From the IMG/VR virus record IMGVR_UViG_3300030399_000348: a DNA stretch of 64,000 nucleotides; one strand, written 5' to 3'. Under the pieces are notes generated by a model, which searched no databases, was not told where the DNA came from, and saw nothing but the letters and a program-made list of their open reading frames with translations. The position numbers and the translations under genes are program-made. This document shows positions 2,326-59,283 of the stretch, one piece after another (the first letter of the stretch is position 1; every line of letters begins with the position of its first letter). The DNA is from a virus.

Positions 2326-5001
2326 TTAAGTCTCTTGGAAGATGAAGTATTGGTCGCCTCCGCTGACCTCCCACACTTGGTCGAGGCGAGGAGCGAGCAA
2401 GCCCATCTGATGCGTCTGATCCCAGTTGGCGACTTCACCAGTAACCACCAAGTTCACCTCGTTCGGCACTGTGGCGATGTTGGCTACAATCTCTATCCAG
2501 TTTGACGGAGGGCTGAGGACTGGTGTAACTCCGAGGTACGGCGGAAGCGAAGCTGGCGGTGACACGAGCAACTGATAATTTCCGTACTGGAGCGTCCATG
2601 CCGATTGAAGCAACGGAGCAACATTGCCAGAAGCAGTCTGCGGGGTCGATGCAATCACGTTGGGGTTTGGGATCGAGAACGTGGTACTCGTCACGTCATT
2701 GATCTTGGCGGTGCCGTTTAAGAGGTCGCGGGCAGGCGAGCCCACTAACGCGCAACCGCTGATGGTGACGAGTTCTCCCTCATGCAGTTGCAACTCGGGA
2801 GGAGAAAGAGGTGCCGTGCTGGAGAGCGCCGTGTACGTATACGTCGCATTGTCACCGTCCGAAACGACATTCGTAATTATGAAAGTGATCGCTGGCAATG
2901 CCGCCCACTGTGCGGGCGTGAGCTTCGGTCCCGTCGTAACCTTGGTGAGATTTGGATCGGGCGGCAGGGATAGCCTGTAGCCCCATGCCGCTAGTGTAGT
3001 CGTGGGCTCGACGCCAAACAGCGTGTTCTTCACTTCGTTATTCCACTCAACAAGCTCGGCTGGGGTGAGGATGCCTGCCATCGCAGATGCCCCTAAGACA
3101 GGGGCTTGAATCAGCATTGGAGCGAATGGCGGCTGTTCGATCTCACGAATGATGATGCGAAGCGTATCAGTGATACCCACAGGCACAGGCGAACACTTCT
3201 CAGGATTGAGCGGGCCCGACAGATAATCGGGGCAGCAATTGTTGACGTACTGCGCTTGATACAAGGTTTGGAACTGGGCTGACAACGCCTGATACTGGGC
3301 GATGGATATCGAGGTAGCTGGGAAGTACGCGACATTACCTATATCGGACGTGAGCGGGTAGTCGGTCACCGCCGCTGTACCAGAGTCAGCCGTGGACGGG
3401 TAGTCGGCTGGCGGGGAGCCATACGAGAACGTAGCCGTGAATCCGATAGGGGCAACTGGTGAACCGCCGTACAGGATAGTGTCCGCAATCACTGACTGCC
3501 CATTCAAGAAAGTCGCGTCAAGTAGACCCGAGAATTCGATGGTCATACCGGACTGGAAATTATTAGCGCACAATACGGTGAGCGTCGTTCCTTCGATCTG
3601 GACGTTGGTGACGTATGCGTTGCTCACGTAAGTCGCGGTGAACCCCGTGGGGCTCGCTGAGAGTACCGTCACCTGTTGTCCATTAAGGAACGCTGCGTTG
3701 CCCAGACCCACGAACTTGATCGTCTGCGGAGCAGGTGTAATTGGAAGCAGCGTGTTGTTCGCCGTCACTGTCAGCAAATTGTCCACAATCTGAACATCCG
3801 CGACGGCAGAAGAGATGTTCGTCCACGTGACGTTACCATCAACCGTGATGCCGCCAGCGGTAAGATTCCAGACTGGTCGCGTTGCTCCGCTCTCGCCATT
3901 GCCAGTGATCGCGGTGACCATCTGGAGATTGCCATTCGAGTCCGTAATGACGAGCCCCAGCCCGTTTGTTTGATTGGGGTTGACGAACGATGTGGTGGGT
4001 TTCCAGAACAGAATCGGGTTGATCGCCACGTAACCATTCAGGTTGTAGTACGCCTGCGATGTGGCTGTGAGGGTATTGTACTGCTGTTGCGTCACATACA
4101 TCGGACTTATCAGACAGTCCAAATCTTCGCCCTCACCGAAGACCGTGGTAAACTCAAGTCCCACGTGTGCGGCCTTCGCGAGGTCGATGGCTCCGTAAAG
4201 GCTTTGGATAATCGCCTGTAGCTGGATCAAACTGGTGAGGGACTGCAACGAATTGGTGCCGCCGACGTTAACGCTGACCTTGATCGCGTTCCGGTCGGAT
4301 TGGTCGTAGAAACCATCTCCGATGAACTGGTATAACTGTTCAACGACGATGTTGATGCCTGTATAGGCGAAGATCACGTCCTGAATTCCGACCGCCGTGG
4401 AGCCCATTCTATAAGCAGCAATCAGGTCCACGAGCATCGTTTTGAAATTGAGATCGAACTGCGTAGGGCTGGGCCAGTAAGCACTCACGTACAGCGGATC
4501 AGCCCAACGGCGGCGAATATCGGGCGGCGTCAAGTAGGACGGGACTTTGTTAATGAGATCGTAGGCGTAGAAGTATTCGAGCCGCGACAATTCCTGTGCA
4601 ATCGCTCGGAGACAGTTGCCCCATGTGCTCTGATCGTTGCGGGTCATGTAGAAATTTGCAACGGCTTGAATCAATGAGTTGAAACGTGCGTCTTCATAAG
4701 GAAGCAAGTTCTCTCGCGGCTGGAGGTACAACTGGTCCGGGGCTGGGGTCTGAACCATGTACACTGTCGCGTTGCCCGTCTCCGCGACCGGAGGCTGAGG
4801 ACCATTCACTGTAGGGTCGGCGAACACCAGAGAGGTGTCGGTCGTACCAGCTAGAAGAGTGACGAGTCGCCCGTTCAACCACCAGCCAGTGGTCAATCCC
4901 CACAATTGGACGACGTTGCCAACCGCGAACGTGCCCCCGCTGGTGACGGAGAGGGTGACAACGCTACCCGCTGTCTCGACAATGTTAGTTATTGTCGGCA
5001 T
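2326..5001 (-). CDS. baseplate wedge/tail-associated protein with repeated beta modules
   Basis: Follows the baseplate J-like gene. Helical segment (LIAAYRMGSTAVGIQDVIFAYTG...AKAAH) typical of wedge partners, plus repeated FLNGQ.VTV modules. Confidence 0.6.
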   Translation of the reverse strand: MPTITNIVETAGSVVTLSVTSGGTFAVGNVVQLWGLTTGWWLNGRLVTLLAGTTDTSLVFADPTVNGPQPPVAETGNATVYMVQTPAPDQLYLQPRENLLPYEDARFNSLIQAVANFYMTRNDQSTWGNCLRAIAQELSRLEYFYAYDLINKVPSYLTPPDIRRRWADPLYVSAYWPSPTQFDLNFKTMLVDLIAAYRMGSTAVGIQDVIFAYTGINIVVEQLYQFIGDGFYDQSDRNAIKVSVNVGGTNSLQSLTSLIQLQAIIQSLYGAIDLAKAAHVGLEFTTVFGEGEDLDCLISPMYVTQQQYNTLTATSQAYYNLNGYVAINPILFWKPTTSFVNPNQTNGLGLVITDSNGNLQMVTAITGNGESGATRPVWNLTAGGITVDGNVTWTNISSAVADVQIVDNLLTVTANNTLLPITPAPQTIKFVGLGNAAFLNGQQVTVLSASPTGFTATYVSNAYVTNVQIEGTTLTVLCANNFQSGMTIEFSGLLDATFLNGQSVIADTILYGGSPVAPIGFTATFSYGSPPADYPSTADSGTAAVTDYPLTSDIGNVAYFPATSISIAQYQALSAQFQTLYQAQYVNNCCPDYLSGPLNPEKCSPVPVGITDTLRIIIREIEQPPFAPMLIQAPVLGASAMAGILTPAELVEWNNEVKNTLFGVEPTTTLAAWGYRLSLPPDPNLTKVTTGPKLTPAQWAALPAITFIITNVVSDGDNATYTYTALSSTAPLSPPELQLHEGELVTISGCALVGSPARDLLNGTAKINDVTSTTFSIPNPNVIASTPQTASGNVAPLLQSAWTLQYGNYQLLVSPPASLPPYLGVTPVLSPPSNWIEIVANIATVPNEVNLVVTGEVANWDQTHQMGLLAPRLDQVWEVSGGDQYFIFQET

Positions 5002-8000
5002 TTATGATCCCGTCGTAGAGGTTGGCGTTACATAGTTGATGACAATGTTGCCTGTCGTCAGGTATTCGGTGGACGACACGGTGATGTCGCTTGCACCCGT
5101 CTCATCGTAAACCTGATAGGTAACAAAGTAGCTGTACAAACCGGGGTTGGTAACGTCCAACGGCACCACGATTGCGATCTTGCCGACGTAGGCCGAAGTC
5201 GTCGTACCGTTGATAGCATCGTTCTCACCGAAGATATAGAACGACCCGGGTACGGCGGTGCTGGCGAGATGCTGTGCCGCTGGGCTGTTTGCCAAGAAGT
5301 CTGCGACCGACGATGCTCGACGGAATAGCTGTCCTTGGTAGAACAGGTCAACTACTGCGTTGGCTTGCCCACCAGATGGAATGGTGGTGTCTGGCAGGAC
5401 ATCCAGCGATGTAATAAAGCTGTTTGCAGGCAAAGCACCAGCGCCCAATGGGGCGAACAGCGGGTCTTGAACCAATGGAATCCACACGGTATCCGTGGGG
5501 ATGACAACTCCGATATCATACGAACCATCGGCCTTTGCACAGCGGAGCAGTGGCAACGAAACGCTGGTGACACCTGTAATCGCCTGAACCTGACTGACGA
5601 GTTCCGACTGGTAAAGCGTACCCTGTGCGTTGTCGAGCACGATGCTGATAGCCGTGCGAATCTGGGGATCAACCACCTCAGTCGAAGCGTTCGCCTGAAG
5701 TGTAACGGTCATCGTGATGTCCACTGGGCTCGCGACCATCGCTTTGATAATCACGTCTGCCGCCGCAGATTTGGTGATTGCGATCTCGTTGGCGAGAACC
5801 TGCACGTAAGCGGGGTACTCGGTGCTGATCGTGAAATTTTCTGTAGCGAAATAAGAAACCGTAACGGTTCCCCCATCTGGGATGCCGCCCGTGCCGATAC
5901 GAGTCAATTCCCATGCATTCGTAACCGGGTCTTGGCTGAGCGTAAAGTCGATGTTCTCACGCATGACCAGATTGAACTGACCTTGGTTATAGGTGACTTT
6001 GATGTAGCGGTTGAGGTACGGAACTTGGGCACCCACCAAGGTCGTATACCCGATGGTAACGCCGTCCACTATGGCGGCCGATGCCGCAGCCGAACCCGTG
6101 ATATCCAACCCACCGTCCGTAGCGTTGTACAGACCGTCCCAGCCGTCGAGCGTGAGCGTGTGGTACTGATCTGGCGGGTAAATTGGTACACCCGGAGCAT
6201 AGCTCTCGGGCAACCAGATATTGTCCACGAAGCTGAAGGCGTTGTTTAACGGTGTCGGTATCACCCCGTTGAGGACCTGTTGCTCGCCTGTGATGAGGGA
6301 TGGACGCTCGTACACCGTAAATTGGTTGTACGTGACCACCACCTGCTCGAAGTTCTGGATGGCGGACCCAGTGACAAAGCCCGAATCTGGAGCCGACGCA
6401 TAATCTGCGCTCGAATAAGCCGCCGTAAATTGCGACGGGGAAGCTGTGGCGATGATAACGATTTGACCACTCAGGAATGTGGCGACCCCAAGCTGGCTTA
6501 AGGTGACACTCGCACCCTGACCAAAATTATTCGGAGTAGTTACCGTCAGCACGTCGCCTGAAATCTCGATGTTAGTGATCGGCGTTGAGGAGGTCAGCAG
6601 GTTCAATCCGTAGGTGTGGTAGGTGTCTAGTGGAACGATGGTGTAATCAACGCCCCAAGTGTAGGAGGTCGAAAGGTCGGTGCTCAACACCGACAAGATG
6701 TTCTGCGGCACGCCAGTGGCACTGAGCGGCACGTCCATGGCGATGTCGATAATGGCGGGGGTTGCCGTACTCGCCGTGATTGTCTTGGTAACGGGGGCAC
6801 TCGTTGTCGCCGATACGTTAACCTCATCTCCCGCCTCGTTCGAGCCTCCGAGCAACAGGAAATCTGAAGTGTGAATGAGTTCAACCAGATTGCTATTTAC
6901 AATCCCCGTCTCCCCGGTCTGACCCACAACCGAGTCTATGGAGATGATAGGCTGAAGCGGCGGGGTGTAAAGCAGCGACGACTGAAGTCGTGCGAATAGC
7001 CCGAAAGTATAGGAGCCCGAAGCACTCGCGAGAGCGGCAACGGCAACTTTGTTGGTCGCTGGAATACCGTTGATAAGCTGCGGAACCTTAGCCGTGGTAG
7101 CCCCCGAGCCTACATACTGATAGCACAGATCGTTCGGGTTGACAAAGACATTCCCGCCCACGTTATCGATTTGAGCGCGTTCAATGCCGAGGTAGAAAGT
7201 GCTCGATCCTCGGGTCACGGCAAGTTCTACGGCCGTGTAGATAGGGGAAGTCAGGGTGCTGAACGATGGAATGTTGAAACGGATCAACTGCGGATCGCTC
7301 AACGTGAGAGGCAGGTACGTCGGTAGGTTGCCATAGGTCCCCACGTTTCCGTATGTGAATGTGACGCTGTTGTTCTGCTGGGTAAGCGTCGTGCCCCGAG
7401 TGTAGATATCCACACAACCATAAACATGCTTCTGGCGGATTGGGTCCCAATCACGGATCATGTCCAGATCGCCAGCCGCCACGATGATAGCCGATATGAT
7501 ACCCGGCGTCTGTAGGGCAGCTACGAGGTAACCGTGGCGTGTGCTTGAGTCGATACCAGTAACGAGACGCGCTTGAATCAAAGCGGCAAACTGCGAGTTG
7601 GACTGTTGGTCGGAACCGTATTGAGCCGCCACGAGATTCGTAACGTTGATGCCCGCAGGAAGACCGTTTACAATCGAGCGAATCGTACCCGCACCGACGT
7701 TGCCTACGGAGCCTGCTGTGGTGCACTCCGCTGGTACGGTCACCGCCCACCAACCCTGCACCGCGTTGTAATAGGAGTTCAGGTTAGCGACGTTGAGCAC
7801 CGCCGACCCACGGGTGATGAAGTTCAAAGCGGGCGTGCTGGCATCTGCGATGGTTGCGACCGTCGCGTTTTCAGGAATCGTAATGCTCTGCGTGGGCTGT
7901 GTGTACGTGAAGAACGTCAGGATTGTGGTGGAGTCGGTCGCCCCGCCGCGAGTCAAACCAGCCTGCTCGCCGAGGATATTGAACTGGGTGTCGATCAGGG

Positions 8001-54901: not shown

Positions 54902-54977
54902 GGGCCTGTAGTTCAGTTGGGAGAACGCTTCCTTTGCAAGGAAGAGGTCATCGGTTCGAGCCCGTTCAGGTCCACCA
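54902..54977 (+). tRNA. tRNA-Ala(TGC)
   Basis: Cloverleaf, loop TTTGCAA, G3-U70, encoded CCA. Confidence 0.95.
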
Positions 54978-55153
54978 AGTTTCGCCGATGCAGTTGGCGC
55001 TCATCCGCCTGATGAAGCTGCACTGGCAAGGGAGCCGATAAGCGAACGGGGATCATGCCCTCGCGTTAGGTCGGTCGGAGACGGCGTTTGTCCGCTTAGT
55101 TTTCCCGCAAGGGTGCAGGACATAGGCTCTAGCTCTTTTCTGAAAAATAGTTG

Positions 55154-55182
55154 TTGCAAGTTTCCTGAATACCGAGTATTGT
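55154..55182 (+). promoter_or_regulatory. sigma70-type promoter of leader/tRNA operon
   Basis: TTGCAA-N17-TATTGT. Confidence 0.75.
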
Positions 55183-55196
55183 AAATAGAGACGCTT

Positions 55197-55328
55197 ATGA
55201 ACTCCATTCTCCAAAACGCAGGTGTTATCGTGACGGTCGCCGCTTGTAGCGCAGCCGAACGCGGTACTGTCGCCGCTGGCGCGGCGGCGGTAGGAGATAT
55301 GGTGTCCTCGGGAGGGTTTGGAGAGTAA
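55197..55328 (+). CDS. putative attenuator leader peptide (43 aa, GNN-codon rich)
   Basis: MNSILQNAGVIVTVAACSAAERGTVAAGAAAVGDMVSSGGFGE. 26 GNN codons. The 3' end overlaps the antiterminator strand. Confidence 0.7.
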   Translation: MNSILQNAGVIVTVAACSAAERGTVAAGAAAVGDMVSSGGFGE

Positions 55329-55352
55329 CAACTTCCAAATCAACGGTTTCCG

Positions 55353-55385
55353 AGGACGCTCAAGCAGAGCGTCCTTTTTGTTTTT
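55353..55385 (+). terminator. intrinsic terminator (attenuator) upstream of the tRNA cluster
   Basis: AGGACGCTC-AAGCA-GAGCGTCCT followed by TTTTGTTTTT. Confidence 0.85.
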
Positions 55386-55397
55386 GCGGTAAAATTT

Positions 55398-55473
55398 GCG
55401 CGGGTAGCTTAGCGGCTAAAGCATCGCCCTTACAAGACGACTATCGTGGGTTCGAGTCCCACCCGGCGCACCA
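55398..55473 (+). tRNA. tRNA-Val(TAC)
   Basis: Cloverleaf, loop CTTACAA, CCA. One mismatch each in the acceptor and anticodon stems. Confidence 0.85.
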
Positions 55474-55489
55474 AGATTGGATTGAAAGA

Positions 55490-55717
55490 ATGAAACGCAA
55501 CAGATCACGCATCATAAAACTGGTCACGACCGTAGAGGTTGAGAAACAGGATTGGGGCTTCCAAGCATGGCACCCCACGTTGGGATTAGTTGCGACTGCC
55601 GACACCGAGGATGAAGTCCTCGACAAGATGGACAAGATGGTGGTTCGGCAATTAGAGTTTGATCTGACTCACGGCACGTTGAAGAGTGTCGCGAAGCCAG
55701 CAAAAATGGGCCGGTAG
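55490..55717 (+). CDS. HicB-like small protein
   Basis: VEVEKQDWGFQAWHPTLGLVATADTEDEVLDKM resembles the HicB N-terminal fold. Stop codon lies inside the next tRNA. Confidence 0.55.
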   Translation: MKRNRSRIIKLVTTVEVEKQDWGFQAWHPTLGLVATADTEDEVLDKMDKMVVRQLEFDLTHGTLKSVAKPAKMGR

Positions 55718-55782
55718 CATAACTGGGAATGCATCTCGCTTGCAACGAGAAAGAAGGAGTTCGAATCTCCCCGTGTCCACCA
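55708..55782 (+). tRNA. tRNA-Ala(TGC), slightly irregular acceptor/T stem
   Basis: Loop CTTGCAA, G3-U70, CCA. Confidence 0.8.
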
Positions 55783-55795
55783 ATTTTAGAAAGAT

Positions 55796-55870
55796 AGCGG
55801 CGTAGCCAAGTGGTAAGGTCGAGACCTGCAACGTCTTTATTCGCGAGTTCGATTCTCGCCGCCGCTTCCA
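55796..55870 (+). tRNA. tRNA-Cys(GCA)
   Basis: Loop CTGCAAC, U73, CCA. Confidence 0.9.
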
Positions 55871-55888
55871 AGTTTTGTTTTGTAATGC

Positions 55889-55967
55889 GGGGCCGTGGTG
55901 TAGCCCGGTCTAACATGCTTCCCTGTCACGGAAGAGATCGCGGGTTCAAATCCCGTCGTCCCCGCCA
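55889..55967 (+). tRNA. tRNA-Asp(GTC)
   Basis: Loop CTGTCAC, G73, CCA. Confidence 0.9.
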
Positions 55968-55973
55968 AATTTT

Positions 55974-56050
55974 GGTGACGTACCATAACTGGCTAATGGG
56001 CTCCCCTGTCACGGGAGAATATAGGGGTTCAAATCCCCCCGTCACCGCCA
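55974..56050 (+). tRNA. tRNA-Asp(GTC)
   Basis: Loop CTGTCAC, G73, CCA. Confidence 0.9.
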
Positions 56051-56057
56051 AGTTTTT

Positions 56058-56133
56058 GCATCCGTGGCGAAACGGGAACGCGGTGGTCTGCAAAACCACT
56101 ACTGAGTCGGCTCGACACCGACCGGGTGCTCCA
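56058..56133 (+). tRNA. tRNA-Cys(GCA), atypical T-loop
   Basis: Loop CTGCAAA, U73, CCA. T-loop CTCGACA. Confidence 0.8.
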
Positions 56134-56209
56134 AGATTAAAGCCTAGTATATTGGGCTTTAGAGGCAGAAAGTCAGCTTTCGCATTGTATATTAGGTCTT
56201 TGAAAATTT

Positions 56210-56585
56210 GTGTTGAACTGGACGACCGCCGCTGCGTAGATATACGTCCTGTGCTTGGAAGCGTTGGCGAAAGCCTTCCCAACCAAGTCCGGTGTTGAGC
56301 GCAGGGGAGGAAGTTCGGGACTGCAAAGAACAGCGTGCCAGCTAACGGCTGGGCGGCACCCGCAAGGGTGTTGACGATTAGAGCTACAGAGACGAGCCGA
56401 TTCAGTTCGGGTGAAACGAGCAATCTCCACGTGCAGCAAGCCCAAATAGGCTGAGCAGGATTGTGTTCGATCCGTTCGCTTCGCAAGAGGCGGGTAATCA
56501 GCGGGTAGGGTGCTTGAGCGTTGTAGCGATGCAACGCCTAGAGGAATGGTCGTCCGCGACAGAATCCCGGCTATAGGTTCAACAC
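56210..56585 (+). ncRNA. rnpB: RNase P RNA (type A-like, reduced S-domain)
   Basis: P1 GTGTTGAAC/GTTCAACAC and P2 GGACGACC/GGTCGTCC. CR-I GAGGAAGTTCGGGA pairs with CR-V ACAGAATCCCGGCTA (P4). ACAGAGACG, GGTGAAAC, GAGGAAT and a P18 hairpin are present. Confidence 0.9.
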
Positions 56586-56727
56586 GAATAAGTTGTGTGA
56601 TCCGCGTGGACACGAAAGTGAAAAACGCTGTAGCTGCGGCTGCGAGACTCGATCCCCGACAGGGGCGTTGGTTCCGGGAAACCCGAATCAATTGTGGCGA
56701 AAGCCGACCGACTGGGACACACGTAGT

Positions 56728-56802
56728 GCGGACATAGTTCAGTGGTAGAACGCATCCTTGCCAAGGATGAGGTCGCGGGTTCGAGCCCCGCTGTCCGCTC
56801 CA
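56728..56802 (+). tRNA. tRNA-Gly(GCC)
   Basis: Loop TTGCCAA, U73, CCA. Confidence 0.95.
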
Positions 56803-56906
56803 AGATTAACATCTGCCTATAAGCCAAGCGGCGAAAGCCGGGGCAGAGACCGACCGAAAGGCGTCCATGCATGAATGGACATAGTGAAGAGTTCTTGGCG
56901 TTGTTC

Positions 56907-56981
56907 GCGGGCGTAGTTCAGCGGAAGAATGCGTGCTTCCCAAGCATGAGGTCACGGGTTCAAATCCCGTCGCCCGCTCCA
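56907..56981 (+). tRNA. tRNA-Gly(CCC)
   Basis: Loop TTCCCAA, U73, CCA. Confidence 0.95.
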
Positions 56982-57014
56982 AGCTTTAACGCAAAAGATT
57001 TTGAGTGGTAAGTT

Positions 57015-57090
57015 GGGCCTATGGCGCAGTTGGGAGCGCGTTTCCATGGCATGGAAAAGGTCGTGAGTTCAAATCTCACTAGGTCCACCA
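57015..57090 (+). tRNA. tRNA-Ala(GGC)
   Basis: Loop ATGGCAT, G3-U70, CCA. Confidence 0.93.
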
Positions 57091-57101
57091 AATTTTATTG
57101 T

Positions 57102-57177
57102 GGCGTTGCCGTCTATCGGTTTGGACCTTGCACTCTCAATGCAATGACGGTGGGTTCGACTCCCATCAACGCTACCA
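57102..57177 (+). tRNA. tRNA-Glu(CTC)
   Basis: Loop CTCTCAA, CCA. Confidence 0.88.
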
Positions 57178-57184
57178 AGTTTGA

Positions 57185-57260
57185 GCACTTTTAACTCAGC
57201 GGCCAGAGTACCACTTTCACACGGTGGGAGTCGCAGGTTCGAATCCTGCAAGGTGCACCA
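57185..57260 (+). tRNA. tRNA-Val(CAC)
   Basis: Loop TTCACAC, A73, CCA. Confidence 0.92.
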
Positions 57261-57279
57261 AGTGTGGTAGAATAGAGCG

Positions 57280-57684
57280 ATGAATAGCTCAAAAGCAGGA
57301 AACGTGGCTGTAGCCGCTGTGCTGGCTGCGTTAGTGAAGAACGATGAGAACGTTTTGATCCCATTCGGGGACGCCCAGCGGTACGATCTGGTGACCTTGA
57401 ATGACAACGGTAGCGTTACGCGGATTCAGGTGAAGAAGGGGCGGTTGAGCAAGAACCGCACGGTTATTCGGTTCAACACCTGTAGTCAGTCACGAAATTG
57501 CCCGCGTAAGAGTTATCGAAACGACGCGGAGATGTTTGCGGTGCACGTTGCGGAACTCGGGAAGATTTATTTCGTCCCCGTAGCCGATGCACCAGAGGCG
57601 GGATGCCAATTACGTTTGACGCCGCCAAAGAACAGCCAACGTGAAGGCGTCCGTTGGGCGAAAGATTACGATTCGGGCCTGTAG
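57280..57684 (+). CDS. PD-(D/E)XK homing-type endonuclease in the tRNA cluster
   Basis: VLIPFGDAQRYDLV...RIQVKKG...Y....EMFAV pattern. TAGAAT just upstream. Stop codon overlaps the next tRNA. Confidence 0.85.
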   Translation: MNSSKAGNVAVAAVLAALVKNDENVLIPFGDAQRYDLVTLNDNGSVTRIQVKKGRLSKNRTVIRFNTCSQSRNCPRKSYRNDAEMFAVHVAELGKIYFVPVADAPEAGCQLRLTPPKNSQREGVRWAKDYDSGL

Positions 57685-57750
57685 CTCAGTTGGGAGAGCG
57701 CACCGTTCGCAACGGTGAGGTCAGGGGTTCAACTCCCCTTAGGTCCACCA
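57675..57750 (+). tRNA. tRNA-Ala(CGC)
   Basis: Loop TTCGCAA, G3-U70, CCA. Confidence 0.93.
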
Positions 57751-57753
57751 GAT

Positions 57754-57831
57754 GTTGGCTTTAGCTCAGGAACAGAGCACTCCCATTAACGGGGGAGGGG
57801 TCGGACGTGAAATGCAGTCCAAGCCACACCA
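57754..57831 (+). tRNA. degenerate tRNA-like gene (anticodon possibly AAC)
   Basis: TAGCTCAG...GAGC D-arm, CTCCC/GGGAG stem with 8-nt loop ATTAACGG, non-canonical T-loop, ends in ACCA. Confidence 0.5.
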
Positions 57832-57942
57832 AGGTTACCGAGTTTAGGGAGTTTATCAAAACTTCATAAACTCATGGGTGGGTTGCCGCGATCATGAGGC
57901 GGTGTAAAATCCTTGCCGGGGTTTCCTTTCCACCAAGTTTTT

Positions 57943-58034
57943 GTGCCTGTAGCTCAACTGGCAGAGCGGCTTCCATCAGCCTCGAAAGAGGCGCGTGGAG
58001 CAGGTCGGAGGTTCGATCCCTCTCGGGTACACCA
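57943..58034 (+). tRNA. tRNA-like RNA with Ala identity and a hairpin replacing the anticodon loop
   Basis: Normal acceptor, D and T arms and CCA. The anticodon stem encloses 23 nt including GCCTC-GAAA-GAGGC. Confidence 0.7.
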
Positions 58035-58036
58035 GT

Positions 58037-58112
58037 GCGCTGTTAGATTAGCGGCTAAATCGCTACCATGACAAGGTAGAGACCGTTGGTTCGAGTCCAA
58101 CACGGCGTACCA
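58037..58112 (+). tRNA. tRNA-Val(GAC)
   Basis: Loop ATGACAA, A73, CCA. Confidence 0.9.
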
Positions 58113-58286
58113 AGATTAGGGGCAATGCCTCTAGGCTGGCAGGAAATACGGCAAATACCTGTGATGCTCGCACAGCAACGCCTGCAAGCGTGAAGTGTGT
58201 GGGTTTTGGTACAGCCAAGTCCCAAAGCGGTTGAAGGTCGCTGTCCTTGCAGGGATTGTGGACAACAACCGCAGAGTTTAAGCTGT

Positions 58287-58362
58287 GGGGTATCCGTCTA
58301 TCGGTTTGGACCTCTGACTTTCAATCAGATGACGAAGGGTTCGACTCCCTTATACCCTACCA
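58287..58362 (+). tRNA. tRNA-Glu(TTC)
   Basis: Loop CTTTCAA, CCA. Confidence 0.9.
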
Positions 58363-58650: not shown

Positions 58651-59283
58651 ATGACCAAGACCTGTACGAAATGTAAAACCCCAAAAGAATTGGCCGAATT
58701 CTATGACGATCCCCGAGGTCGGTTTGGGAAGCAGTCCCGCTGTAAACTATGTCAGGGCGAAAGTACAAAACAATGGCGGGCAGAAAGTACCGATGCCGCT
58801 CGAATGAGTCAAAGGAAGACCGCCAGAAAGTATAAAGCCTACTGGCGTACCCACAATCCCTATGATGAAACAAAATTTCGGCATTGTCCTCATTGCAATC
58901 TCAACAAACCCAGTTTAGATTTTGATGAGTGTCATTCAGTAGCGGACGGCTTGCAATCATGGTGTCGGGGATGCAGTGGCTCACGAAGCTCCATCACTAC
59001 AATGCTGACTTGGACTCGGGCAAGGGCGAAGAAGAACGGTATGGAATTTTCTCTCGCTAAGGAAGACATCACCATACCCGAAACATGCCCCGTTCTCGGG
59101 ATTCCGCTATACAAAATGAAAGGACGTGCAGGCTCCAATTCCCCCTCGTTAGACCGTATTAGAAGTAGTGAGGGGTATGTGCCCAACAACGTCAGAGTTA
59201 TCTCATACCGAGCAAATTTCTTGAAAAACAATGCGACAGTCGAAGAGCTAGAAAAGGTTCTGGTTTATATGAGGTCTTCGTGA
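58651..59283 (+). CDS. HNH homing endonuclease
   Basis: Two CxxC...C..C Zn modules. IPETCPVLGIPL...SPSLDRI....GYVPNNVRVISYRAN..KN. Confidence 0.9.
   Translation: MTKTCTKCKTPKELAEFYDDPRGRFGKQSRCKLCQGESTKQWRAESTDAARMSQRKTARKYKAYWRTHNPYDETKFRHCPHCNLNKPSLDFDECHSVADGLQSWCRGCSGSRSSITTMLTWTRARAKKNGMEFSLAKEDITIPETCPVLGIPLYKMKGRAGSNSPSLDRIRSSEGYVPNNVRVISYRANFLKNNATVEELEKVLVYMRSS

Follow-up and report, generated by a model that had tools for sequence, protein, structure and literature searches.

A bacterial type A RNase P RNA encoded among the tRNA genes of large phages from peat

A bacterial type A RNase P RNA, of a natural subtype that lacks helices P13 and P14, is encoded inside the tRNA array of a phage on the 64,000-nucleotide stretch of DNA analysed here (IMG/VR record IMGVR_UViG_3300030399_000348, hereafter the window). 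Taken as a whole, the evidence makes it likely that the RNase P RNA gene is functional and belongs to tailed peat and soil phages of ~300-460 kb, and the product is predicted from its sequence to remove the 5' leaders of pre-tRNAs. To our knowledge, RNase P is regarded as a universal cellular enzyme; phage tRNAs were classical substrates in its discovery. A full-text literature search, which included a 2024 review of RNase P, found no description of a virus-encoded RNase P RNA, and a phage-borne form is apparently unpublished. The phage RNA is full-sized and of a cellular subtype that can be traced; its P4 is re-paired, one of its modules is movable, and it is seen directly at the RNA level. 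It extends the list of translation parts carried by huge phages to a catalytic RNA, and it is of a kind that standard phage annotation (tRNAscan, ARAGORN and protein families) misses.

Identity and fold of the phage RNA

The RNA matches the RF00010 model (RNaseP_bact_a) over its full length (cmscan; window positions 56210-56589, + strand; model positions 1-367), with a score of 175.2 bits compared to a gathering score of 100 (E = 7.2e-55). An initial annotation, made from the letters of the window, had recognized an RNase P RNA at 56210-56585 and named a covariance-model search as the way to check it; the significant RNaseP_bact_a match upholds the identity and the placement of the RNA, while the 3' end is corrected to 56589. 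Contigs from peat RNA suggest a mature RNA that is slightly longer at the 5' end (Table 1), and these ends add four A/U-rich pairs (AUUU/GAAU) to P1, making P1 blunt.

The structure was examined in the cmscan alignment and through a manual mapping of the pairs in every helix. All window pairs of P1, P2, P4-P12 and P15-P18 are standard, the one exception noted by hand mapping being a G-G in P3. Both checks agree with the earlier assignment of P1, P2, P4 and P18, and P4, which had been described as diverged but still paired, indeed forms eight standard pairs from non-consensus bases around one bulged U. The P6 pseudoknot joins J5/7 to the loop of P17, a feature of type A and not of type B. The stacked helices P13 and P14, typical of type A, are missing: 43 model positions of the P13/P14 block are deleted, GGGUGAAA leads by way of CG to AGCAAUCUCCAC, and the core of the specificity domain includes the direct junction CG-AGCAAUCUC. 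P12 forms a hairpin of only 4 bp. Also absent is the optional J2/4 (P19) stretch, which is unremarkable in a type A RNA, and several relatives do have a hairpin there. Thus, the tiny P12, the missing P13/P14, the missing P19 and the long P3 of the initial annotation are all seen in the cmscan alignment. The P15-P16 internal loop carries CGGGUAGG at 56501-56508, which includes the GGU motif and is conserved in the phage family. In bacterial type A RNAs, the L15 GGU motif pairs with the 3'-CCA of tRNA.

Table 1. Features of the phage RNase P RNA and of the array that encloses it (window coordinates)
Feature	Position	Strand	Pairing, basis or remark
tRNA array, 15 ARAGORN tRNAs and one odd tRNA-like RNA	54902-58362	+	encloses the ribozyme gene
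Probable mature phage RNase P RNA, 384 nt	56206-56589	+	cmscan; ends from peat RNA contigs
P1, 5' strand	56210-56219	+	pairs with 56576-56585; fully paired
P2, 5' strand	56220-56227	+	pairs with 56548-56555; fully paired
Elongated P3, 9-pair base helix and 59-nt extension	56229-56307	+	cmscan insert; fold
P3 module, GCUUGG-AAGCG-[GGC GAAA GCC hairpin]-CCCAA-CCAAGU	56253-56287	+	fold
P4, 5' strand, AGU(U)CGGGA with the U bulged	56312-56320	+	pairs with UCCCGGCU, 56565-56572
P6 pseudoknot, 5' strand, GAACA	56328-56332	+	pairs with UGUUC, 56464-56468, in the P17 loop
Specificity-domain core: P10, P11, J11/12 (ACAGAGACGAG), P12, J12/13 (GGGUGAAA)	56376-56427	+	
P15-P16-P17 arm	56440-56511	+	P15, P16 and P17 covary
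Additional GCAA-capped hairpin after P17	56477-56492	+	within the P15-P17 arm
L15 GGU motif	56503-56506	+	GGGU invariant or nearly so in the phage family
P18 hairpin, 8 pairs and GCGA loop	56518-56537	+	7 of 8 pairs doubly changed in the family

The RNA belongs to a family of phage RNAs. RF00010 matches of 139-167 bits are found on contigs with DnaB proteins 83%, 49% and 36% identical to that of the window, and in these relatives the RNA lies ~10 kb downstream of dnaB inside a tRNA array. A search of IMG/VR with the P13/P14-less junction gave 14 viral contigs in all, and 12 distinct phage RNAs of 295-418 nt were aligned and scored on the structure of the window RNA. Standard pairs fill 92.7% of the cells, compared to 35-43% after a shift of the 3' partners by 1-3 columns; both sides of the pair have changed in 62 of the 101 pairs, and none of 500 shuffles reached the observed pairing values. 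Covariation is seen in P1 (both-side changes in 8 of 10 pairs), P2 (5 of 8), P5, P7, P8, P15-P18 and the P6 pseudoknot, the latter occurring as GAACA/UGUUC, GGAU/AUCC, GGACA/UGUCC and GAGCA/UGCUC. The CR-II and CR-III sequences, in J11/12 and J12/13 respectively, which make up the module for recognition of the tRNA elbow (T-loop), are invariant across the 12 RNAs. For the relative G002, the 5' end set by cmscan is ~70 nt inside the real one, and the P1/P2 strands are found upstream of a longer P3 insert. In G001 (L003), one C of J5/15 is missing (GCAG-AAG) opposite window position 56437; RNA contigs with G001 alleles keep this C, and the gap may be an assembly error or represent a further strain.

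The P13/P14-less subtype of bacteria and the origin of the RNA

The initial annotation took the reduced specificity domain to be a trait of the phage; this part was not upheld, as the same architecture is that of the sole rnpB of many bacteria. The junction motif matched at least 120 bacterial contigs, and an RNase P RNA was found in 96 of 120 among the matches listed. Among these listed matches, 74 are Burkholderiales as labelled (Polaromonas, Hydrogenophaga, Variovorax, Acidovorax, Rhodoferax, Roseateles, Aquabacterium and others), and the others are mostly unclassified Betaproteobacteria, with five Alphaproteobacteria, three Omnitrophota and one Planctomycetia. The bacterial junction-bearing RNAs have the same deletion and the same tiny P12 (cmscan). 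A P13/P14-less RNA is the single RF00010 match in five Burkholderiales isolate genomes, in four Omnitrophota/Planctomycetia metagenome-assembled genomes (MAGs) and in five alphaproteobacterial MAGs of 0.6-0.9 Mb; in 20 of the 30 Omnitrophota sampled, the junction is one base longer. No paper describing a P13/P14-less type A rnpB subtype of bacteria was found in the literature search, and the subtype, as it occurs in Burkholderiales and Omnitrophota, is useful for annotation by itself.

Across 121 Burkholderiales genomes, the RF00010 scores fall into two classes of ~290-344 and ~190-260 bits; thus, the modest score of the phage RNA reflects its subtype and not decay. The P13/P14-less bacterial rnpB examined as loci (L032, L061, L085, L063, L041, L062, L075, L077 and L185-L214) score ~150-260 bits.

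The phage RNA appears to have been taken long ago from a cell with this subtype. Each of three trees gave the phage clade a different sister group: uncultured Burkholderiales/Sutterella (SH-aLRT 89), Omnitrophota with a Planctomycetia MAG (96/92), and the tiny Alphaproteobacteria together with phage L030 (94/98). Since long branches meet, neither a donor nor a host is named. A blastn search with the RNA gave no match in 5,426 E. coli genomes. One Burkholderiales genome, which has a normal rnpB of 319 bits, yields in addition a weak RF00010 match of 139 bits from a very small contig (G082:C243:129-533); this additional match may be a phage or mobile copy.

Features particular to the phage RNAs

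The features observed in the phage RNAs alone are substitutions of P4 pairs and a structural module located in P3 or P9. The 5' strand of P4 has the core G-U-CCGG in 100 of 103 bacterial comparators and is variable in the phage clade, where it takes the forms GUUCGGG, GUUCGGA, AGUCGGGG, AGUCGGAG, GUUCAGG and CUUCGGC. The 3' strands always match: P4 is paired in 100% of the cells of the 12 phage RNAs, with double changes at five of its eight pairs. In the window RNA, if the second U is bulged, P4 has its normal layout of three pairs, the bulge and five pairs, and substitutions affect the two pairs preceding the bulge and the second of those following it. In E. coli numbering, these replacements presumably correspond to A67-U to G-C, G68-C to U-G and C71-G to G-C, and we take A67, G68 and C71 to surround the catalytic metal site. 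A P4 substituted at metal-ion sites could have an altered chemistry.

The module is an internal-loop element in which a variable GNRA-capped hairpin is held between GCUUGG-AAGCG and CCCAA-CCAAGU; it may act as a tertiary strut or as a protein site. It is located in P3 of the window RNA and of the G001 and G002 RNAs and in P9 of G004 and L027 (on the minus strand in L027; in L014 it lies at about 1612-1641). The module of G004 and that of the window differ at a single base, and the remainder of the two RNAs is ~75% alike. The module was found nowhere else in the window; further IMG/VR contigs and the ~130 bacterial rnpB sequences compared contain no copy of it. A loose look-alike is present downstream of the RNase P RNA of G005 (L013 2043-2086). 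Optional GNRA hairpins occur after P17 and at the P19 site of phage RNAs.

Relation to known RNase P RNAs and phage ribozymes

The phage RNA shares with bacterial class A RNAs (RF00010), of which we take E. coli M1 RNA (rnpB) and the Thermotoga maritima RNA of PDB 3Q1R to be examples, the helices P1-P12 and P15-P18 with the pseudoknots P4 and P6, the conserved regions CR-I to CR-V, the GGU motif of L15, and P9 and P18 helices capped by GNRA loops. It differs from them in being encoded by a virus, within a tRNA array and without rnpA, in lacking P13/P14, in having P4 pairs substituted around the bulged U, and in carrying the P3 extension and the extra hairpin after P17. Close counterparts are the P13/P14-less rnpB of Burkholderiales such as Diaphorobacter, Hylemonella, Hydrogenophaga, Roseateles and Curvibacter, of Omnitrophota and of tiny Alphaproteobacteria, which have the same S-domain architecture with the junction GGUGAAACGNGCAAUC (one base longer in most Omnitrophota), a tiny P12 and similar RF00010 scores. 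Unlike the phage gene, these are single chromosomal housekeeping copies, outside tRNA arrays where checked, with an invariant G-U-CCGG core of P4 and no P3/P9 module.

The type A RNase P RNA of archaea is also without P13/P14 (PMC4919922); by contrast, P18 is present in the phage RNA, and the match to the bacterial model is full-length. Archaeal type A RNAs lack P18 as well, and need four or five proteins.

Theta (HDV-like) ribozymes located beside the tRNA genes of gut phages are proposed to mature phage tRNAs (PMC10879173), and are similar to the RNA described here as phage-encoded ribozymes with a proposed role in maturing the phage's own tRNAs. The theta ribozymes, however, are small, self-cleaving, and act in cis on 3' trailers, whereas RNase P RNA, which originates from cells, works in trans as a 5' endonuclease with multiple turnover; RNase P is treated solely as a cellular enzyme in the theta-ribozyme paper (PMC10879173). 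The gene also resembles the tmRNAs, tRNA synthetases and further translation genes of huge phages (PMC7162821), which are likewise imported parts of the translation apparatus. Of RNAs, only tRNAs and tmRNAs are annotated in that survey, and the term 'RNase P' is absent from its text (PMC7162821).

The phage RNAs offer natural experiments on RNase P, in the form of pair swaps in the P4 metal helix, the absence of P13/P14, interchangeable peripheral struts and a possible circular form.

Expression in peat and a possible circular form

A discrete and abundant RNA is present in peat RNA libraries of two studies. Six peat metatranscriptome runs contain part of the stretch, and four were mapped onto 55400-57300 as assembled contigs, not raw reads. 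Run X18 gave no contig there, and uncovered parts of the stretch are not evidence of silence. The sole contig of run X16 covers 56206-56589 at a depth of 151. In run X19, from another study, a contig covers 56371-56589 joined to 56206-56292 at a depth of 121. In run X15, pieces of 56349-56570 reach k-mer depths of 3900-7900, compared to 24 for a contig over the tRNAs at 55400-56050. The spacers on both sides of the RNA have no cover in the RNA runs mapped; thus, DNA carry-over is not the explanation of the signal. The RNA contigs carry the G001 alleles at 56293 and 56527, two bases off the window, and their source is therefore a near-identical strain and not the window itself.

Two further observations concern these runs. 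A contig of X15 (depth 24, ~96% identical) joins 56050 to 56763 and skips 712 bases with the tRNA-Cys and the RNase P RNA, and is either from a related phage without the segment or a chimera formed via similar tRNA ends. In two RNA runs, each from a different study, position 56570 in the 3' strand of P4 is followed by Illumina adapter sequence, and fragments may preferentially end here, at the metal-binding helix.

The X16 and X19 contigs both join 56589 to 56206, a junction that may derive from circular molecules or may have formed by ligation or by template switching on an abundant RNA whose two ends are close together. Native isoforms in which the RNase P RNA is circular are described from E. 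coli (circM1), fungi and human cells (preprint 10.1101/2025.06.30.662392). An unlikely alternative to an RNA that works with the host protein is that the RNA is active in a manner unlike the host enzyme, as a largely protein-independent and/or covalently circular ribozyme, in which the altered P4 and extra GNRA-capped struts would replace P13/P14 and the stabilisation by RnpA. The recurrence of the junction in two studies, the E. coli circM1 of the same preprint, the blunt extended P1 formed by the ends, the phage-only modules and extra GNRA hairpins in P3/P9, P17.1 and P19, and the failure to find a phage rnpA are in line with this alternative. Against it, the junction may arise during library preparation, the share of circles is not readable from contigs, and the regions known to contact RnpA (P2, the base of P3, J18/2 and J2/4) are conserved. 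The related proposal that the RNase P RNA maintained by one lineage of huge phages has diverged from the cellular enzyme, with a P4 free to vary, a portable P3/P9 module and a substantial circular fraction, is speculative and, on balance, doubtful. If true, the host protein could be dispensable to such an RNA or only loosely engaged by it, which would make the tRNA set of the phage independent of host RNase P, and phages that carry rnpB could spread the P13/P14-less subtype among unrelated bacteria.

The tRNA array, the partner protein and the proposed function

The reading favored here is that of an RNase P RNA that serves the phage together with a host protein. The gene sits between tRNA-Cys (56058-56133) and tRNA-Gly (56728-56802), all on one strand, and its earlier placement inside a tRNA operon agrees with the 15 same-strand ARAGORN tRNAs that surround it. 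All 15 tRNA genes of the window encode CCA; several spacers of the array are 6-18 nt, and the sequence before position +1 is U-rich. The tRNAs of the array are the presumed substrates. A scan for sigma-70-type promoters found nothing directly upstream of the RNase P RNA, and co-transcription of the ribozyme with the array is plausible.

The array includes other elements. In G001 and G002, a tRNA gene starts 7 bases after the RNase P RNA (L003 1422-1493; L004 1423-1494), and at this site (56590-56727) the window has no such tRNA gene and a 138-base spacer instead. Hairpins of the form GGC-GAAA-GCC recur in the inter-tRNA spacers of the window (56695-56704 and 56829-56838). A tmRNA gene (L024 4423-4727, minus strand; RF00023, 78.6 bits) lies ~700 bases from the RNase P RNA of L024 in the same array. 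A gene for a 134-aa PD-(D/E)XK endonuclease (57280-57684, + strand; PF11645, E = 2e-29) is located between two tRNAs of the window array, and an HNH/EndoVII nuclease gene (58651-59283) follows the array; both are probably selfish or homing elements. The 134-aa ORF was considered as an RnpA analogue and rejected, as it is the PD-(D/E)XK nuclease.

No rnpA was detected in the window by tblastn and hmmsearch with three bacterial RnpA sequences, as the initial annotation had stated, and no PF00825 (RnpA) match was found in the relatives G001, G002 and the CheckV-complete G004. Use of the host RnpA is proposed since no rnpA was found in the phage and bacterial RnpA proteins are interchangeable between species (PMC4919922). 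In the proposed mechanism, the RNA would be transcribed with, or next to, the phage tRNA genes, be excised as a 384-nt RNA whose ends form the blunt extended P1, and bind the host RnpA. The resulting enzyme would cut the 5' leaders off the pre-tRNAs of the phage, of which there are 49-64, CCA-encoding and closely spaced, thereby separating and trimming the polycistronic precursors, and RNase P capacity would be kept or raised during infection. According to one study (PMC7049720), E. coli depends on RNase P essentially for the separation of polycistronic pre-tRNAs. The parts that read the substrate (CR-II/CR-III and the L15 GGU) are intact, and the tRNAs look ordinary. The mechanism provides a testable reason why host RNase P might be limiting for phages whose tRNA genes number at least 50 and are tightly packed.

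A take-over role is unlikely. The RNA would, in this case, compete for the host RnpA or form a holoenzyme with changed preference, such that host tRNAs and other RNase P substrates are starved and phage precursors are served. The great abundance of the RNA relative to its neighbors in one metatranscriptome, the P4 substitutions at positions invariant in 100 of 103 bacterial comparators and the 49-64 tRNAs brought by the phage would fit such a tool. However, no changed specificity is visible in the sequence: CR-II/CR-III, the L15 GGU and J5/15 are as in bacterial RNAs, and the phage tRNAs look like ordinary CCA-bearing substrates.

Inheritance and selection in the phage clade

The RNA is inherited within a phage clade, and its fold is under selection. 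The three closest RNAs have 3 differing positions over ~270 core columns, and around them the flanking DNA is 74-80% identical and DnaB 83% identical. A single clade holds 11 of 13 phage RNAs (support 100/95 in two trees), with L024 and L030 outside of it on long branches; G036 (locus L170) was excluded from all trees. The covariation, the near-identical core and the single phage clade indicate that the RNA is neither a recent pick-up nor a relic.

It is very improbable that the gene is a host rnpB decaying as a passenger, acquired with tRNA genes and without function for the phage. Phage RNAs score 165-208 bits against RF00010, compared to 290-344 bits for full-type bacterial RNAs, and have large inserts in P3, P9 and P12, as a decaying copy might. 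The low score is, however, explained by the P13/P14-less subtype, which is at ~190-260 bits in bacteria too, and decay is contradicted by covariation in nearly every helix, including P4 and P6, by retention of the gene across phages with 36% DnaB identity, by a core that is near identical where the flanks are only 74-80% identical, and by the discrete RNA in the RNA libraries.

Phage nature of the carriers

The carrier of the gene is a phage molecule and not a cellular one, and no cellular alternative is seen. The window has genes for Baseplate_J and an endolysin, for a DnaB-type helicase and a replication initiator, and for a ribonucleotide reductase and an HNH/EndoVII nuclease; its DNA is present in at least 14 peat metagenome runs. 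Searches of IMG/VR with DNA and protein placed relatives on contigs of 50-463 kb. Baseplate_J is found in all five relatives tested, and no 16S rRNA is detected in five relatives, including three that are CheckV-complete at 332, 455 and 463 kb. Two CheckV-complete relatives, G004 and G135, have 64 and 49 tRNA genes, respectively. The Terminase_6N and Phage_sheath_1 Pfam models have no match in five relatives, and the TerL_ATPase match of G004 is weak (21.7 bits); the virion genes are, therefore, divergent. No PHROGs match was found for eight large ORFs of the window.

That the contig is cellular DNA or a chimera with an ordinary bacterial rnpB is scarcely credible: the IMG/VR and GenBank phage sets do include such errors, the sole matches in deposited phage records are bacterial and the eight large ORFs are without a PHROG match, but on one and the same contig the array is flanked by genes for Baseplate_J, endolysin and replication, the three CheckV-complete relatives (332-463 kb) are without 16S rRNA and G004 also without rnpA, and the comparator bacterial rnpB are not inside tRNA arrays, where checked.

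The matches in the deposited phage records (50,697) are two of 80 nt, and were rejected as phage genes, each being bacterial chromosome beside a prophage integrase. In L184 (CAKLQF020000022.1, 'Acinetobacter phage MD-2021a'), coaD, a ferredoxin gene, tRNA-Met, a LysR regulator gene and rnpB lie next to a prophage integrase.
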